Sequence record: KC801932 | Reading direction: 5' to 3' (one strand) | Source of the DNA: Escherichia phage Lw1 | DNA length: 64,000 nt | In this document: piece by piece, positions 3,466 through 61,237 of the stretch | How the letters are laid out: each line of letters begins with the position of its first letter | Position numbering within the stretch: the first letter of the stretch is position 1 | Program-made: the position numbers and the translations under genes | The notes under the pieces: generated by a model | Seen by the model: the letters and a program-made list of their open reading frames with translations, nothing else | The model's database searches: none | What the model was told of the DNA's origin: nothing

Positions 3466-4125
3466 TTAAAAGTTAAATACATTCAGCACGTCAGTTTTCA
3501 ATTCACCAAGCGTACCATTATTTAGGATGATAATATCGTTTGGTTGGGGTTTCAATCCTTTCTCAGTTGAATGGCTATCGTCTTCCCCAGTTTCGCGTTC
3601 GATGAATACAAATTTAGTCCCGAACTTGCTCAGGTATTTATATTCATGTTTTTGTCGAACGTCTGTAATGATAAAGTGATCTTTATCGGATTTCAAGATT
3701 TTCTTCAATACAATGTCAGTCCATACAGAATCGTTCTCATTGCAAACGATGTCAGTACCGAAAACCTGCATCAAACGGCGTATTGTCCAGGGATGTTTGT
3801 TTGTTTGGCAAATTTCATACGCGATGATATCAGCATTATTAAGCCAGTACCCGCGTTTAGTCAACGATTCAATGCCATTAGCAAACAGCATACGCGCACC
3901 TTCGTTAGACATCAACAGGGGTGCTTCCCGATCCCCTGAATAGAATGGGTTTGTTTTAGAGAGTTCTCGCAGATAGCGATCCCCTGATGCAGACATTCCA
4001 TTTCTCAGGATACTCTTTATTTCATCAGCAAGCGCGATTGCTTCAACGTTCTGATAGTTATCCAAAACGAATTGAGAAACGGTGTCTTTACCTGTTCTCT
4101 TTTTTCCGCAAATACCATAAATCAT
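3466..4125 (-). CDS. 1: deoxynucleoside monophosphate kinase (gp1)
   Basis: P-loop GKKRTGKDT, RRLMQVFGTD and DVRQKHE motifs shared with T4 gp1; synteny. Confidence 0.85.
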   Translation of the reverse strand: MIYGICGKKRTGKDTVSQFVLDNYQNVEAIALADEIKSILRNGMSASGDRYLRELSKTNPFYSGDREAPLLMSNEGARMLFANGIESLTKRGYWLNNADIIAYEICQTNKHPWTIRRLMQVFGTDIVCNENDSVWTDIVLKKILKSDKDHFIITDVRQKHEYKYLSKFGTKFVFIERETGEDDSHSTEKGLKPQPNDIIILNNGTLGELKTDVLNVFNF

Positions 4126-4661
4126 GATTCTTTTTTCCGTGGAGTCGGCACGAGTACCTTTCCGTCTATCTCAATTTCCATATGTGCGAAGTTGAACATA
4201 GCCATACAGGAAACGGCTTCATCCGAGTCATTAGTGTACATAAGCTCAAGCTCTCCCAGGTTGGAGGGCCAAGCACCATAAAAGCGAAATGTCGCCACAG
4301 TTTTTGATTGCGAGTTATCCAGGATGTGTAAAGCCATTGCCTGTTGTGGTTCACTCCATCGAATTGAATCGAAGGTGTTAAAATCACAGGTTCCAAGCAT
4401 CCACAGGTAAACACCCAGATACGAACGCAATTCTTCATCAACAGCAAAACGGATAGTCAACGGATCGAACTCCATTGCAGATCCAGGGATTTTCCCACGG
4501 ATCATAGGGTTCAATGGTACGTCCGTAATTGGAATGTTGACAGAAGGTAGTGTAACACCCTGAATTTGTAGTTTCAACCCTTTCATATAATCATTATCAG
4601 GAATATCTAACATAAAGTTAGTTGGTGAAATCTGGTTCAGGATCATAGCAGTAGTGTTCAT
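4122..4661 (-). CDS. 3: tail completion / sheath stabilizer protein gp3-like
   Basis: 179 aa, position between gene 1 and gene 2 as in T4; GGAGA SD before ATG 4661. Confidence 0.6.
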   Translation of the reverse strand: MNTTAMILNQISPTNFMLDIPDNDYMKGLKLQIQGVTLPSVNIPITDVPLNPMIRGKIPGSAMEFDPLTIRFAVDEELRSYLGVYLWMLGTCDFNTFDSIRWSEPQQAMALHILDNSQSKTVATFRFYGAWPSNLGELELMYTNDSDEAVSCMAMFNFAHMEIEIDGKVLVPTPRKKES

Positions 4662-4698
4662 TAATGATCTCCATTTTGTAGATATTTATGTAGACCGT

Positions 4699-4860
4699 GA
4701 GCGAAGCGAACACACGAACGAAGTGAGTGTTTTTAACTCAACTACATAATTATATATTTATATTTTATATATAGAGAAAAATGTAGTTTTTGGTATGGTT
4801 TTTAACCAACTGTAAACTATCCGTCTTCGCTTCGCTTGACGGAACTCGCTTCGCTCGTGA
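4699..4860. repeat. ~140-bp dispersed repeat, copy 1 (AT-rich core with internal hairpin aactacat/atgtagtt, flanked by GC-rich inverted repeats gagcgaagcga / tcgcttcgctc)
   Basis: Near-identical to 39685..39849 (core aactacataattatat...agagaaaatgtagtttttggtatggtttttaaccaactgtaaactatccgtcttcgcttcgct) with a few indels. Confidence 0.85.
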
Positions 4861-4885
4861 TCTTGAAAAACTATTTGACCCTTTC

Positions 4886-4893
4886 AATAAATA
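4886..4893 (+). promoter_or_regulatory. late-promoter-like box AATAAATA (7/8 to T4 TATAAATA) followed by 8-bp palindrome ataggtat/atacctat
   Basis: Located ~40 nt upstream of internal-protein ATG 4932. Confidence 0.3.
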
Positions 4894-4931
4894 GGTATAT
4901 CATACCTATACTTTCAAAAGAGATTGAAAAC

Positions 4932-5717
4932 ATGAAATCATTCAAAGAACTACTGTCTGAATCTGTTCAGACCAAAAAATTTGCTAAAACTGTTGATCTG
5001 GTTGACCGTGGTAATGCTTCAAAAGGTCAGATCGGTTTCCTGCACTTTGCACACGGTGCTGATTACGATGTGTATGCGCCGGACTCTCACGATCTCGCCT
5101 ACTTCGGTAAAGGTGTTGTTCGCCTGAAAGGTAAAACCACTGGTAAAACTCAGGCTGCATATGTTGACTGGGCGAAAGGTACGGTTTCTTTCTATAGCGG
5201 CGATCCGGCAGATGACCTGAAATTCGACAAGCCAGCGAAATTCAAAGGCGCTTCCCTGTACAAAGAAGCCGAAGAAAATCTGGATCTGTATAATCAGTTA
5301 GCGGAAGACTTCGAAATTGATGTACCGATGGATGAAGCACTGGTGAAAGGTAAGGTGTACAAGCTCCCAAGCAACGATATGCGCTTGCTGTATACCGGAC
5401 GTACCAAAAACAAGCCTACAGGTGAATACGCTGTGTTTACGGTTGTAGATGCCTCCGGTAAGCCTCGTCTGGTATCGGGTAAACGATTTACCCAGGAATA
5501 CAAAGGCGATATGCTGTCTAAACTGGTTCTCGCTGAATCGGAAGATCTGAACGAGGCCGCTAAAGGCATTCGCGAAAAAGTTATTGCGGTGTTGGTGAAG
5601 CGCGGGTTTAACGAAAAAGATGCAGAAAAGATGGTTGATAAAAACCTAAAAGATGCGATGAAAGTTCGCCCTGGTGCAACTCCAGGAAAACTAGCGGAAA
5701 TCGTGAGCACCTTGTAA
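4932..5717 (+). CDS. internal head protein with capsid targeting sequence (IPIII-like, lysine-rich)
   Basis: N-terminus MKSFKELLSE matches T4 CTS consensus MKTYQEFIAE (gp21 protease-cleaved leader); basic K-rich body; start at ATG 4932 rather than ORF-track 4836. Confidence 0.65.
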   Translation: MKSFKELLSESVQTKKFAKTVDLVDRGNASKGQIGFLHFAHGADYDVYAPDSHDLAYFGKGVVRLKGKTTGKTQAAYVDWAKGTVSFYSGDPADDLKFDKPAKFKGASLYKEAEENLDLYNQLAEDFEIDVPMDEALVKGKVYKLPSNDMRLLYTGRTKNKPTGEYAVFTVVDASGKPRLVSGKRFTQEYKGDMLSKLVLAESEDLNEAAKGIREKVIAVLVKRGFNEKDAEKMVDKNLKDAMKVRPGATPGKLAEIVSTL

Positions 5718-5721
5718 AAAT

Positions 5722-5753
5722 AAAGCCCCTTCCTTTCGGTTGGGGCTTTTTTT
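5722..5753. terminator. rho-independent terminator between convergent genes
   Basis: aaagccccttcctttcggttggggcttt + T-run; identical 28-nt sequence recurs at 40986..41013. Confidence 0.7.
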
Positions 5754-6606
5754 AATATCGGTTCCAAACTTTTTTCGCGCTGTATGGTTTTCCTTTCGAC
5801 TGGAAAGCCTGTGTAGGCAACCAAACTGCTTTCGCCCAGTCTTTTGGGGCTATCTCTGCAAGAGGTGATCGCAGGTGCGCAGGTAAGTATGCTTTGATCA
5901 TTTGATCTGCACCGCGCATCCCTTTCACGTTGTTCCAGTTGATTTTCAATCTGGTTTTGTTTGAAAGGCGATCTGTTGAACCATAACCACGTTTCAACAG
6001 TTCTTCTAAAAACTCTTGACGGGCTTTAGGTGGCGCATAGTGCAAGTTCAAACCGTACAGAACAACGTTACCCGCTTTAGAACGTCCTGAACCCAGGAAG
6101 ATGATTAGCGGGAACCGATCCCAGTATGGTAAGGTGTCTTTATATTTCGCGTCATACACGAACGTATACAGGCGACCTGTTGCTGGTTTCGCTACCCTGT
6201 GCGTTTTGATGCTGGTTTTGATGAAGTCACCAAACCAATCGGTTGAATCCTTTTGACGTTTCGCAGCAGAAACACCAACTGTAATTTTCCGTAAACTATT
6301 TCGGAAGTCGTTGATGATGTCAACTGTATGTTTTTTGCGATAGTCATTGCGTTTTCGTCGGGCTTCGGTTTCTGCTGTACGTCGCGAGATTTCATCATCA
6401 ATCTGCTGTTTATAGCGGTGCATAGACTTTGTGAACGTTGCGTATGCAATCCCGTTTTCGTCCGCGAATTTTTTGGCTGTCATGCCTTTTAATTTTGCGC
6501 GTCTGAATTTAACACCCAGTTCAACCCATTCACCAAGTTTTCGCTTCGGTGGCGGTTTCGGCTTATCTTCTTCTGCGATGATCTCAAACTCAAATATAAA
6601 ACTCAT
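5752..6606 (-). CDS. 2: DNA end protector protein gp2-like
   Basis: 284 aa basic protein in T4 gp2 position (between gp3 and gp4); GGAGGG SD. Confidence 0.6.
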   Translation of the reverse strand: MSFIFEFEIIAEEDKPKPPPKRKLGEWVELGVKFRRAKLKGMTAKKFADENGIAYATFTKSMHRYKQQIDDEISRRTAETEARRKRNDYRKKHTVDIINDFRNSLRKITVGVSAAKRQKDSTDWFGDFIKTSIKTHRVAKPATGRLYTFVYDAKYKDTLPYWDRFPLIIFLGSGRSKAGNVVLYGLNLHYAPPKARQEFLEELLKRGYGSTDRLSNKTRLKINWNNVKGMRGADQMIKAYLPAHLRSPLAEIAPKDWAKAVWLPTQAFQSKGKPYSAKKVWNRY

Positions 6607-6627
6607 AATTCCCTCCGTTTAGGGTAT

Positions 6628-7095
6628 TTATTGCCCTTTCCATCCAAATACACGTTTCAACGTGTCTTCTGTGATGATCTTAAACTCCCAGCCCTTTTGT
6701 TTTGCTGCTGCATTAGCGGCTTTCCATTTGTCAATGTTTACTGCATAAGTATACAGCGCATCAACAAATTTCTTTTTGTTGTGAACGTTGTTATTCGCTG
6801 GTTTCGGTGGTGGCAATGTTTCTTTCATCGGTTTGACTTCCCATAGGTAGGTCACTCCGTTATCCATTTCAACATAAAAATCCATGAAGTAACGCCGTCT
6901 TTTACCGTCTGCGTTGCTGAAATAGGGGATAACAACCTCTTCACTGTTCCAGCGCTTTACATGCGGGTTTCGATCAAGCCAGTTCATAATATATTTTTCC
7001 CAGCTTGAACGATACGTTATCTTTCGGGGATCGCCTTTATATTTTGTGATGTTCTGGGGCATAAAAGACCCCTTGTACGTCTGTCTTCCAGCCAT
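6628..7095 (-). CDS. 4: head completion protein gp4
   Basis: MAGR..YKG N-terminus and size match T4 gp4; synteny next to gp53. Confidence 0.65.
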   Translation of the reverse strand: MAGRQTYKGSFMPQNITKYKGDPRKITYRSSWEKYIMNWLDRNPHVKRWNSEEVVIPYFSNADGKRRRYFMDFYVEMDNGVTYLWEVKPMKETLPPPKPANNNVHNKKKFVDALYTYAVNIDKWKAANAAAKQKGWEFKIITEDTLKRVFGWKGQ

Positions 7096-34505: not shown

Positions 34506-34750
34506 TGAAAGAATTTATCGAAGCAATCAAAAGCGGCGATCTGGTGGAGGCTAAGAAGCAATTCTACTCCATCATGGAAGACCGTACCGAAGCCCTTCGC
34601 CAAGAAATGCGCGTTGAAATTGCAGAAGCAGTCCGAATCGAAGGTGAAACCGACGAAGACGACAGCGACGATGATAAAGACGACAAAGACGGCGAAAAAG
34701 GCGAAAAAGACAAAAAGCCGTCTGAAAAAGACGACAAAGCCGACGAATAA
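34502..34750 (+). CDS. 67: prohead core protein gp67
   Basis: 82 aa with acidic D/E/K-rich tail; synteny. Confidence 0.8.
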   Translation: MMKEFIEAIKSGDLVEAKKQFYSIMEDRTEALRQEMRVEIAEAVRIEGETDEDDSDDDKDDKDGEKGEKDKKPSEKDDKADE

Positions 34751-34762
34751 GAGGTGTAAATA

Positions 34763-38336: not shown

Positions 38337-39635
38337 ATGAGTGAAAAACATTACACAATTCACAAGTTGATGCGTCAGTCTACGCTTCCCCCTGGTAAAC
38401 GCGAAAAGGTTATCAACGAAGCAACTGGAACGACCGACATCAACGTACAGAACACGCGCCCAGAACTGGTTTCTTTGACTCGCGCTGTTAACAACCTGAT
38501 CTATCATGAACTGGTTGCTGTACAAGAAACAAATTTACCCGTAGCAACTCTGTTTGGTGTTCGCTATCGTAACCCTAACGGCGACATGACTTTCTCCAGC
38601 GCTGCAACCTATTCAGGCCGCATATCTGGACGTACAGACATCGACGATATCGATCTGGCTAAGGCATACGTCAAAGGCGATTTATTCAAGCACGATGTCA
38701 CTGACGTTGTGTATGAGGTCATCGAACCTGTAACGCTAAACGCGCTGGATACTGATAAAGACACCGCAATCATGAAAGCTGTGTTCCAAAGTAAAATTCG
38801 TTTGGTTAGCGAAGCCGCAGACACTTCAAAATATGAAACCAGTGAAGATATCGCATCAACCTCTTTCCAGATGGATCGCTGGAACATTCCGGTTCGTTCA
38901 CGTAAGTTTAAAACTGAAATGACCGTGGAATTGATGCAGGATCTGGAAGCAAACCAGTTTGAAGCCGATGGGGTAATTGAAGATATCCTGGGTACGGTTG
39001 CAAGCGAAGAAGTCAACAAAGATATTATTCAGACGCTGATCACCGTTTCCAAACGATATAACGTTGATGGTGTAGTTGTCGATGGTATTTTTGACGGTAC
39101 AACCGCATACACTGCGAAGGATGCTCCAGCATTGGGCCGCATACTCTATCAATTAGCGTGTGAAATGGGTCAAGAAATGAATAGAACGACTTCATTTGAT
39201 GCAACCTACGTCCTCGCTAGTGCTCGCGTTGTAGGCGTTCTGGCTGCGTCTGGTTGGATGACCGAAACCGACGAACAACACCCGCTGGCAACTGGTAAAC
39301 TTCAAAACGGTTATTATGTCTATACCGACACGAATACACCGTTTGATTATCTGCTTACCGGATGCAAATACGATCTGGGTGATATGGATCACGTAGGTTC
39401 TCTGTTCTTCACTCCGTACACCGAAGCGGATGAAGCAGGTTCAATCAAGGTATCCGTAGATCCTGCATCACTGCAACCGAAAGTTGCTATTCTGATGCGT
39501 TACGGTTTATCTGTGAACCCATACACAACGGAATCCGACTCTGAACGGTTGACCAAAGGCGATGACTGGTCGAATCTGGCTGGTAAATCCAAACTCAGTC
39601 AAATCGTAGGTATTAAATTACCTAAGCTGGGTTAA
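38337..39635 (+). CDS. 24: capsid vertex protein gp24
   Basis: 432 aa; motifs LVSLTRA, SRKFKTEMTVELMQDLEAN, TLITVSKRY, LQP..A.L.RYGLS.NPYT shared with T4 gp24. Confidence 0.95.
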   Translation: MSEKHYTIHKLMRQSTLPPGKREKVINEATGTTDINVQNTRPELVSLTRAVNNLIYHELVAVQETNLPVATLFGVRYRNPNGDMTFSSAATYSGRISGRTDIDDIDLAKAYVKGDLFKHDVTDVVYEVIEPVTLNALDTDKDTAIMKAVFQSKIRLVSEAADTSKYETSEDIASTSFQMDRWNIPVRSRKFKTEMTVELMQDLEANQFEADGVIEDILGTVASEEVNKDIIQTLITVSKRYNVDGVVVDGIFDGTTAYTAKDAPALGRILYQLACEMGQEMNRTTSFDATYVLASARVVGVLAASGWMTETDEQHPLATGKLQNGYYVYTDTNTPFDYLLTGCKYDLGDMDHVGSLFFTPYTEADEAGSIKVSVDPASLQPKVAILMRYGLSVNPYTTESDSERLTKGDDWSNLAGKSKLSQIVGIKLPKLG

Positions 39636-39684
39636 TCAAGTTTTGAGAAGACCATTATAATAACAAAGATCAAGAAGGTCAAAC

Positions 39685-39849
39685 GAGCGAAGCGAGTTTT
39701 CACGAACGAAGTGAGTGATGGGTACTACTAACTACATAATTATATTTTTATATTTTATATATAGAGAAAATGTAGTTTTTGGTATGGTTTTTAACCAACT
39801 GTAAACTATCCGTCTTCGCTTCGCTCATTCATGTACTCACTTCGTTCGT
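39685..39849. repeat. ~140-bp dispersed repeat, copy 2 (same core and GC-rich inverted flanks as 4699..4860)
   Basis: Direct comparison with copy 1; flanking inverted repeats acgaacgaagtgagt / actcacttcgttcgt. Confidence 0.85.
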
Positions 39850-39853
39850 AGAT

Positions 39854-39881
39854 TTGACTTCTTGATCATGATGGTTATAAT
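39854..39881 (+). promoter_or_regulatory. sigma70-type promoter for uvsY (TTGACT - 16 nt - TATAAT)
   Basis: Consensus-like -35 and exact -10 ~25 nt upstream of uvsY ATG. Confidence 0.5.
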
Positions 39882-39904: not shown

Positions 39905-40327
39905 ATGGCTGAACTAAAACTTGAAGATTTACAGGCTGAACTCGAAAAGGATATGTTGATCGACCCTCTGAAACTACAGAGTGAATCAGCAGACATTCCT
40001 AAGATTTGGTCTAAGTGGCTTCGATATCATTCGAATGCTAAGAAAAAACTGATCCAGCTACAGGCCAGGAAAGAAGCAGAAGTGAAAGAACGGCTTCTGT
40101 ACTATACTGGAAGACACGAAACCGAAATGACTGATGTCATTTACACGGGTTCAGGTGAAATCAAGATCGCGATCAACGGTGATCCGAAAATTGTTGAGGT
40201 TAACAAACTGATTCAGTATTTCGAACTGATTGCGGAATTCACCAGTAAAGCCCTGGACATTGTTAAGAACAAAGGATATTCTATCAAAAATATGTTGGAA
40301 ATCCGAAAACTTGAAAGTGGTGCATAA
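39905..40327 (+). CDS. uvsY: recombination mediator UvsY
   Basis: 140 aa; LEDLQ.EL.KD..ID..KLQ...A...K..SKWL..HS pattern like T4 UvsY. Confidence 0.85.
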   Translation: MAELKLEDLQAELEKDMLIDPLKLQSESADIPKIWSKWLRYHSNAKKKLIQLQARKEAEVKERLLYYTGRHETEMTDVIYTGSGEIKIAINGDPKIVEVNKLIQYFELIAEFTSKALDIVKNKGYSIKNMLEIRKLESGA

Positions 40328-40985: not shown

Positions 40986-41017
40986 AAAGCCCCTTCCTTT
41001 CGGTTGGGGCTTTCTTT
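40986..41017. terminator. rho-independent terminator between convergent genes (same sequence as 5722..5749)
   Basis: aaagccccttcctttcggttggggcttt + T-rich tract. Confidence 0.7.
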
Positions 41018-61000: not shown

Positions 61001-61237
61001 ATGAAAATCAAAAATACTGCTACTGAAAATCTTTGCAACGAAATCGCGGTGACTTACTGGAAAGAAGGTCACGCAAAAGCAATGAAGGATTTTCAACACT
61101 GGAAAGAAGGTCACGCAAAAGCAATGAAGGATTTTCAACCGTGGTGTGATACCCAGAAGTTAGCCAAATGGGAATACATCGTAATCGTGGAACGGATCAA
61201 AGAACTGATCCTTGAGAAGAAAGGCACTATAAAATGA
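61001..61237 (+). CDS. hypothetical protein (78 aa) containing in-frame 14-aa duplication
   Basis: ORF track; WKEGHAKAMKDFQ repeated. Confidence 0.45.
   Translation: MKIKNTATENLCNEIAVTYWKEGHAKAMKDFQHWKEGHAKAMKDFQPWCDTQKLAKWEYIVIVERIKELILEKKGTIK
61057..61140 (+). repeat. perfect-to-near-perfect tandem duplication, 2 x 42 bp
   Basis: ctggaaagaaggtcacgcaaaagcaatgaaggattttcaac repeated head-to-tail, one mismatch at unit end. Confidence 0.9.

Follow-up and report, generated by a model that had tools for sequence, protein, structure and literature searches.

Three copies of a hairpin-armed, A+T-rich intergenic element in RB16/RB43-type phages: a candidate replication-origin-like module

The 64,000-nucleotide stretch of Escherichia phage Lw1 analysed here (sequence record KC801932; hereafter the window) contains two intergenic copies of a repeated element in direct orientation. 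Copy A (4697-4858) lies between gene 3 (− strand, 4122-4661) and an open reading frame (ORF) at 4932-5717 on the + strand, and copy B (39683-39849) lies between gene 24, which ends at 39635, and uvsY (39905-40327). A preliminary description of the window had claimed two near-identical repeats here, each intergenic and just upstream of a promoter, and both claims are borne out, with sigma-70-like promoters at 4875-4903 and 39854-39881. A centre of ~97 nt is ~98% identical between the copies: 59 nt are without any difference (4778-4836 and 39767-39825) and another 41 nt (4740-4780 and 39730-39770) are 98% identical, while column identity over the whole alignment, flanks included, is 84%. The similarity is not a product of chance, as shown by the flank motif ACGARCGAAGYGAGT, which occurs five times in 64 kb, every time within copy A or B, against an expectation of 0.31 and with none of 100 shuffles reaching five. 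The window is identical to Citrobacter phage KKP_3664 (100%) and nearly so to phage RB16 (99.4%), placing it among the RB16-like phages of the genus Pseudotevenvirus. The two copies enclose the genes from gene 2 to gene 24; the further claim that they bracket the entire late structural block does not hold for gene 3, the hub genes 25-29/48/54 and the tail-fibre genes, which lie outside. The A-to-B spacing is 34,990 nt in the window versus ~37,000 nt in RB16, or ~2 kb shorter. A Seg-like homing endonuclease gene between gene 2 and gene 4 is present in RB16 and absent from the window (window 5752-7095 versus RB16 101848-103825).

Both copies are built on the same plan. From left to right come two 15-nt boxes, a short lineage-specific repeat, a nearly pure A+T tract of 32-43 nt with a conserved right half (ATATTTTATATATAGAG), the short repeat's inverted partner, the conserved sequence TTTTTAAYCA, and two boxes in the opposite orientation. 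The core is closed by an inverted repeat of 6-11 bp, and its short repeats are lineage-specific 6-8-mers, two direct and one inverted. The boxes follow the consensus 5′-ACGARC-GNA-GYGAGT and fold through pairs 1:15, 2:14, 5:11 and 6:10, with tandem G·A/A·G pairs at 3:13 and 4:12. In copy A, the left arm on the + strand consists of box 1 (4697-4711, GTGAGC-GAA-GCGAAC), with outer pairs G:C and T:A in place of the A:T and C:G of other boxes, and the box 2 mini-hairpin (4714-4728, ACGAAC-GAA-GTGAGT). The core (4740-4788) places AACTACAT (4740-4747) and ATGTAGTT (4781-4788) around a 33-nt A+T tract and is followed on the + strand by the conserved tract TTTTTGGTATGGTTTTTAACCAACTGTAAAC (4789-4819), which includes a small TGGTT/AACCA inverted repeat. 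The right arm, read on the − strand, begins with box 1 (4821-4842), a CCGTC/GACGG stem around AAGCGAAGCGAA that covaries in other copies (CCGT/ACGG, TTCATC/GATGAA, TCGGC/GCCGA), and ends with box 2 (4844-4858, ACGAGC-GAA-GCGAGT). Similarly, copy B has left boxes on the + strand at 39683-39697 (ACGAGC-GAA-GCGAGT) and 39702-39716 (ACGAAC-GAA-GTGAGT), a core at 39730-39777 with AACTACAT (39730-39737) and ATGTAGTT (39770-39777) around a 32-nt A+T tract, and right boxes on the − strand at 39814-39828 (ATGAGC-GAA-GCGAAG) and 39835-39849 (ACGAAC-GAA-GTGAGT). The parts named in the preliminary description, namely the 8-bp hairpin AACTACAT/ATGTAGTT, the tract TTTTTGGTATGGTTTTTAACCAACTGTAAAC and inverted flanks of the GAGCGAAGCGA type, are all present. 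A DnaA-box reading of the (T)TATCC before the right arm was discarded, the match being too weak.

The cores are exceptionally easy to melt. By nearest-neighbour energies, cores A and B rank first and second among the least stable segments of the window, whether 30, 40 or 50 bp are considered, and the three cores of the ~177 kb RB16 genome, including that of the third copy described below, are its three least stable 40-bp segments. Over 40 bp, cores A, B and C have free energies of −36.4, −36.5 and −38.6 kcal/mol, the next least stable RB16 site has −41.6 kcal/mol, and the genome mean is −53.9 kcal/mol (standard deviation 3.5).

Comparison of the window with itself and with whole genomes gives two copies in the window, but this count is incomplete because a third genomic copy lies outside it. 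Copy C occupies the divergent interval between rnh and gene 55 in RB16. With copy A or copy C as the query, ~60 genomes of the genus are matched, with copy C finding three places in nearly every record, and the element is annotated in none of the ~60 matched records. In every lineage examined (RB16, RB43/CfP1, a GAP161-like genome, Yersinia phage JC221 and metagenomic relatives at 70-80% protein identity) the sites are fixed at gp3|ORF, gene 24|uvsY and rnh|gene 55, and the boxes are conserved exactly where gp3 is 70% and UvsY 74% identical. The genomes examined contain no empty or polymorphic sites and no target-site duplications beside the arms, and as such the element does not classify as a miniature inverted-repeat transposable element or other transposon. 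At copy B, the right-arm boxes run X′-Y′ in RB16-type genomes versus Y′-X′ in RB43/CfP1/GAP161-like genomes, and a box swap within one arm therefore accounts for the opposite order. A scan of viral contigs for exact 15-mers returned mostly chance matches and was useful for the four reference genomes only. By these comparisons the element is real, ancient in RB16/RB43-type phages and under selection. It is apparently undescribed, as far as could be found: the literature yielded no earlier description of it in RB43, RB16 or Pseudotevenvirus. The sister genus Slopekvirus carries at the same three sites a different repeated module of A+T-rich DNA, 300-400 bp long, in which GATC is clustered and the early promoters stand in tandem, as duplicated copies of TTGAAT-17-TATAAT with GATC directly before the −10 hexamer.

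Covariation within the boxes indicates that the mini-hairpins are what selection maintains. Across 39 distinct units in a 19-nt alignment, 83% of cells are paired versus 65 ± 2% in shuffles, 44 cells have double changes versus 15 ± 4 (none of 500 shuffles as high), and the covariation score is 0.578 versus 0.205 in shuffles and 0.01-0.12 with the partner slid, although these numbers overstate independence because pairing partly guided the choice of units and the sequences share ancestry. How varied the pair types are at a single position is independent of unit choice: pair 7:13 is GC in 28 units, AU in 8 and CG in 3, and never unpaired, and pair 4:16 is CG in 21, UA in 12, AU in 3 and GC in 2. 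C8, G9, A11 and G12 are invariant in 39/39 units, the closing pair is always C:G, and the loop is always GNA, either GAA or GTA, with GCA in one bacterial island copy. In some boxes the G·A pairs are swapped for Watson-Crick pairs, as in CCGACC-GAA-GGTCGG, TTCGC-GAA-GCGAA and TCGGC-GAA-GCCGA. The stable, purine-loop form of the hairpin belongs to the + strand to the left of the core and to the − strand to its right, with mirror symmetry in 20/20 elements, and the hairpins therefore stand 5′ of the core on either strand. A long arm-to-arm stem or cruciform is preferred by the energy model but was rejected as the selected structure, because changes within the boxes abolish the complementarity between the arms, as in copy A with GTGAGC..GCGAAC on the left and ACGAGC..GCGAGT on the right. 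Folding of both copies, a check proposed in the preliminary description, gives single-strand folds more stable than shuffles (z −3.5 to −4.6), and across the whole window Rfam gives no match at gathering score, nor any meaningful one when thresholds are relaxed. Mini-hairpins of the GCGAAGC type melt at 76.5 °C as DNA, versus only 39 °C for the RNA form of the related GCGAAAGC; they bind single-strand binding protein poorly and are known at the G4 origin, at RSF1010 ssiA (CCGAAGG) and in the N4 hairpin promoters (PMC13037366, a 2026 review).

Predicted promoters flank the copies and point outward. To the left of copy A, a late-promoter-like box, CATAAATA, is read at 4683-4690 on the − strand in the gene 3 leader, pointing away from the element; the equivalent position of RB43 has an exact TATAAATA, and we infer that the box is a late promoter. 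To its right, a sigma-70-like promoter (TTGACC-17-TATCAT, 4875-4903, + strand), outside the conserved repeat, points to ORF 4932-5717. Copy B has one such promoter on each side, TTGACC-17-TATAAT at 39654-39682 on the − strand and TTGACT-16-TATAAT at 39854-39881 on the + strand. Both match sigma-70 promoters at 11/12 positions and they mirror each other, sharing TTGACyTTCTTGATC. The rightward one faces uvsY; the leftward one is conserved in all lineages, points antisense into the gene 24 3′ end and has no ORF downstream. The preliminary picture of a single promoter downstream of each copy is thus correct for the right side of both but leaves out this strong leftward promoter. Copy C of RB16 likewise has an outward pair, for rnh and for gene 55. 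None of the promoters belongs to the conserved unit, their hexamers, spacers and distances differ among A, B and C, and the distance from box to −35 hexamer ranges from 4 to ~40 nt. Two internal candidates, TTGGTA-17-TAAACT (+) and a GTTTAC-type sequence (−), were rejected because both are weak and neither is kept in the GAP161-like, JC221 and metagenomic lineages. The transcription units to the right of A and B close with terminator hairpins, at 5722-5753 after ORF 4932-5717 and at 40986-41017 after the uvsY operon, that are 97% identical over 32 nt (AAAGCCCCTTCCTTTCGGTTGGGGCTTT), so that both copies head units alike at start and end. ORF 4932-5717 itself (phrog_7322, 261 aa) fills a place between genes 2 and 3 that is empty in T4. 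It has no Pfam domain match, its conservation is 82% in Slopekvirus and 69% in JC221, and it is missing from Pectobacterium phage POP12, whose POP12_055, considered as a homologue, shows no similarity.

Cores evolve in concert within each genome, while the arms stay site-specific. Core identity is 0.88 between different sites of the same genome and 0.72 at the same site in different lineages, versus 0.54 and 0.69 for the right arm. When copy A of RB16 is compared with that of the GAP161-type genome, the arms are identical or 96% identical and the core only 72%. The type of core stem is common to all copies of one genome, and its variants (AACTACAT/ATGTAGTT, ATGTACTG/CAGTACAT, ATGTCC/GGACAT, ATGTC/GACAT and ATGTCTAC/GTAGACAT) show compensatory changes; pairing was found by a search of each sequence, column-wise counting having been dropped as the register of the stem varies among lineages. 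Eight positions separate copy B of the window from its RB16 counterpart; seven of them fall in 39787-39814 (+ strand), and all seven equal window copy A, making this segment an A-to-B conversion tract between sites 35 kb apart. On a larger scale, the gene order of POP12 (uvsY | gene 2 ... gene 24 | gene 3) is that of RB16 with the A-B interval inverted, both breakpoints lie at element copies, and an identical 43-nt arm stands at both junctions and at rnh|55. The suggestion that the repeats serve as recombination substrates therefore holds on the evolutionary scale, but not for excision of the structural block, of which no instance was seen; excision of the gene 2-gene 24 block would be lethal. 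The junction between uvsY and gene 2 in POP12 is a 700-bp non-coding region with at least four 21-bp tandem repeats containing TTTTTGGTATA, a TTATC ×4 run and a GC-rich repeat (CGCTGCGC); its TTTTTGGTAT motif recurs in the conserved tract of the RB16-type element.

The same preliminary description had offered mobile regulatory cassettes of the PeSL type, and the element shares with these (Arbiol 2010; Comeau 2014) an intergenic position, an A+T-rich part, stem-loops near sigma-70 promoters and homology usable for recombination; its copies do recombine with each other, by the conversion tract, the concerted cores and the POP12 inversion. The reading fails on the other features. PeSLs occur in dozens of copies in hyperplastic regions beside variable ORFans, with the promoter inside the repeat and a G-run/C-run terminator stem, whereas the element has three copies at conserved core positions, promoters outside the repeat at variable distance, no GGGG/CCCC stem-loop, and stems that are C-GNA-G mini-hairpins and an A+T-core stem. 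Nor does it flank variable cargo, its neighbours being conserved genes in the ~60 genomes.

Complete copies at 82-88% identity are also found in four bacterial contexts: plasmid pTR_1_35, the malX island of E. coli CX12/CX08, Citrobacter freundii p6_C and a contig from a metagenome-assembled genome (MAG). Each is preceded by a ~200-nt conserved spacer and, before that, by a gene or gene remnant that NCBI names 'inovirus-type Gp2 protein', which has a Pfam YagK/YfjJ C-terminal domain and a sub-threshold match to Rep ORF2/G2P; the phage collection searched contains no homologue of it. Neighbouring genes encode a Ppl defence protein, a CBASS cyclase, a large serine recombinase and resolvases. The plasmid and island copies keep arms and core and lack the flanking promoter pair. 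Their backbone is conserved while their core types differ and match different phage lineages, and cores have therefore moved between phages and islands more than once. Elsewhere, an island with a Gp2-like core gene and defence cargo is transduced as a phage satellite (Zhao et al., bioRxiv 10.1101/2024.08.29.610337). The islands of that study are alike in combining a Gp2-like gene with anti-phage cargo; they differ in that they pair Pseudomonas with a jumbo phage and have no reported shared cis element, whereas here a ~165-nt sequence is common to the islands and T4-like phages. A further, incomplete left arm comes after the element in pTR_1_35 and the MAG contig, as GAAGCGAAGGACACGAACGTAGTGAGTGT or in decayed form, and may be a scar of recombination. 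In C. freundii p6_C, the C-terminal part of a gene II-like gene of the CX12 type survives as an annotated 'hypothetical protein'; a second full gene II-like copy, 40% identical, lies upstream and the CBASS cyclase follows the element.

We propose that the element works as an unwinding and priming module akin to a replication origin and is recombinogenic as a by-product, and give this reading a probability of roughly one half. An origin-like unwinding element was one of three readings in the preliminary description and is the best supported of them, by the meltable cores, the position of copy B at the site of oriF, the strand-specific mini-hairpins and the island copies, but it is unproven. In the proposed mechanism, divergent transcription would load the interval with negative supercoils until the core opens; as the opening spreads, hairpins would form in the arms, keeping the bubble from closing and resisting single-strand binding protein. 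They would mark each strand for entry of a primosome or primase, as ssiA and ssiB do in RSF1010 oriV, and synthesis would leave bidirectionally, with the lineage-specific 6-8-mers of the core probably read by a phage factor. Gene conversion, occasional inversion and exchange with defence islands would be side effects of keeping three homologous copies of ~170 bp, and the islands would plausibly carry the element to be replicated or packaged by an infecting phage. A wider version of this proposal, in which the three copies are homologous origins of a type new for T4-like phages, with a fast-evolving core read by a lineage-specific phage factor, and the islands copied the origin, re-matching its core to local phages for amplification or transduction by the infecting phage or as a decoy for its replication machinery, is tentative and somewhat doubtful.

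T4 itself offers both support and contrast. Its oriF and oriG are ~100 bp each and combine a MotA promoter with a downstream unwinding element; the T4 origins have no common motif, oriE, oriF and oriG lie where the direction of transcription switches, and origin fragments drive plasmid replication in infected cells (PMC3016281). Natural plasmids and islands that carry the element are at most an indirect hint that it may do likewise. In the T4 record, oriF lies at the uvsY 5′ end, oriE within gene 5 (3.4 kb from the start of gene 3) and oriG within gene 34 (2.2 kb from the start of rnh), with primer RNAs at oriE and oriG annotated antisense to late genes. Like oriF and oriG, the element is a module of ~100-170 bp with an A+T-rich, unwinding-type core and an adjacent promoter. 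In addition, copy B occupies the same uvsY 5′ flank as oriF, and its leftward antisense promoter resembles the antisense primer RNAs of oriE and oriG. Unlike oriF and oriG, the element has no MotA box, its predicted promoters being of sigma-70 type with a TTGAC −35, and it does not qualify as a MotA-dependent middle promoter. The T4 origins share no motif whereas the three element copies are homologous, the mini-hairpin arms have no T4 counterpart, and the sequence upstream of T4 uvsY shows no similarity to the element.

In layout and motif the element resembles the single-strand initiation signals of RSF1010, and it is by this likeness that priming at the boxes is suggested. Unwinding exposes RSF1010 ssiA and ssiB, which are inverted repeats located on complementary strands (PMC8567376), and they and the G4 origin share with the element hairpin-forming inverted repeats on complementary strands beside an unwinding region, a layout seen in 20/20 elements. 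The C-GAA-G motif of ssiA is also shared, and CCGAAGG itself recurs in boxes of JC221 and of metagenomic relatives. The differences are that the RSF1010 signals are 40 nt whereas the boxes are 15 nt and come two per arm, and that T4-like phages have no RepB′-type primase. The N4 virion-RNA-polymerase promoters likewise use a DNA hairpin of 5-7 bp with a GNA triloop closed by C:G, extruded from supercoiled DNA; unlike them, the element has four boxes mirrored around a melting core, and T4-like phages encode no such polymerase. Iteron origins of plasmids and lambda-like phages have at least three direct repeats of 17-22 bp and a nearby initiator; the core has only 6-8-mers and is not of this kind.

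Several points weigh against an origin function. The whole case is drawn from sequence. The predicted flanking promoters point away from the extreme A+T core and so do not reproduce the T4 oriF/oriG mechanism, where an R-loop forms as the transcript crosses the unwinding element; moreover, RB43 has neither MotA nor a middle-promoter consensus (PMC1524935). No phage-encoded initiator was found when homologues of the island gene were sought in phages and ORF 4932-5717 was considered, and the latter is ruled out as specificity factor by being 96% identical across different core types. The correspondence of A with oriE and of C with oriG holds only within 2-3 kb, and all the sites are also switches of transcription direction. 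The GATC-rich early-promoter clusters at the same three sites of Slopekvirus fit a promoter-region reading equally well. Finally, the partial choice of covariation units by pairing inflates two of the five pairs, and the kinship of the sequences inflates the shuffle statistics.

If the origin-like reading is correct, it has consequences beyond this genus. T4-like origins are known only for T4, where they have no common motif and depend on MotA; a homologous, easily recognised candidate origin in three copies would make the start of replication in the many MotA-less relatives directly testable. The element would also give the very stable GNA DNA mini-hairpin a natural use in a double-stranded-DNA phage. 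Its presence in defence islands points to a possible satellite or decoy relation with a virulent T4-like phage, a little-known class of helper. Whatever its role, the element accounts for a large inversion that separates related genomes, and its copies show that gene conversion continues across 35 kb.

A different function, which we consider unlikely, is that of a supercoil-responsive regulatory spacer between back-to-back promoters, absorbing or transmitting the negative supercoils of divergent transcription or binding a phage regulator through the core 6-8-mers; in phages without MotA, such a spacer would tune how uvsY, gene 55, rnh and ORF 4932-5717 are expressed at early or 'middle' times. 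Every phage copy does lie between outward promoters with a constant orientation relative to the right-hand gene, the lineage-specific core repeats, two direct and one inverted, have an arrangement common in transcription-factor sites, and extreme meltability would also suit a site of stress-induced duplex destabilisation. The absence of MotA from the RB43 group and the early-promoter clusters of Slopekvirus are consistent with the same idea. It is opposed by the position of the promoters, which are outside the conserved unit and have −35 hexamers 4 to ~40 nt from the boxes, and by the plasmid and island copies, which kept arms and core and not promoters. Covariation, too, indicates single-stranded hairpins rather than duplex binding sites.

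The conversion tract, the concerted cores (0.88 within a genome versus 0.72 at the same site across lineages), the POP12 inversion with both breakpoints at elements and the core types common to phages and islands could instead mean that the copies are recombination linkers or hot spots, dispersed homologies kept for recombination-dependent replication, conversion, module inversion or cointegration with bacterial elements. As the primary function this is quite unlikely: homology alone needs no covarying hairpins, no C-GNA-G rule, no mirror-image strand asymmetry and no cores that are the most meltable in the genome. Exchange between sites is also limited, because the site-specific arms are nearly unchanged across lineages. 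Recombination of this kind is compatible with an unwinding and priming module as its consequence and is not an alternative to it.

Terminal inverted arms that form hairpins, the adjoining gene II-like gene in four bacterial contexts and the lack of a homologue of that gene in the phages are what would be expected of a selfish, non-autonomous mobile element, mobilised by the YagK/YfjJ protein (gene II-like, possibly HUH) and left by three ancestral insertions with no function in the phage. This origin is very unlikely given the same three sites everywhere with neither empty or polymorphic sites nor target-site duplications, the exact conservation of boxes at 70% (gp3) and 74% (UvsY) protein identity, and a covariation that implies continuing selection in phages. 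A structured RNA transcribed from the element, be it a small RNA, a processing site or a leader, is extremely improbable in spite of the single-strand folds that beat shuffles and a left arm of copy B reachable by read-through from gene 24, as there is no Rfam family match and no internal promoter conserved across lineages, no known transcript enters copies A and C because both lie between divergent promoters, the stable hairpin form would require inward transcription from both sides, and GNA mini-hairpins are much weaker as RNA.

Two further repeats in the window lie apart from the element. In the prohead-core gene region, 34651-34751 holds degenerate short repeats (GACGAAGACGAC/GACAAAGACGGC) that would encode an acidic and lysine-rich run, and 61056-61139 is a perfect 42-bp tandem duplication, ACTGGAAAGAAGGTCACGCAAAAGCAATGAAGGATTTTCAAC ×2.

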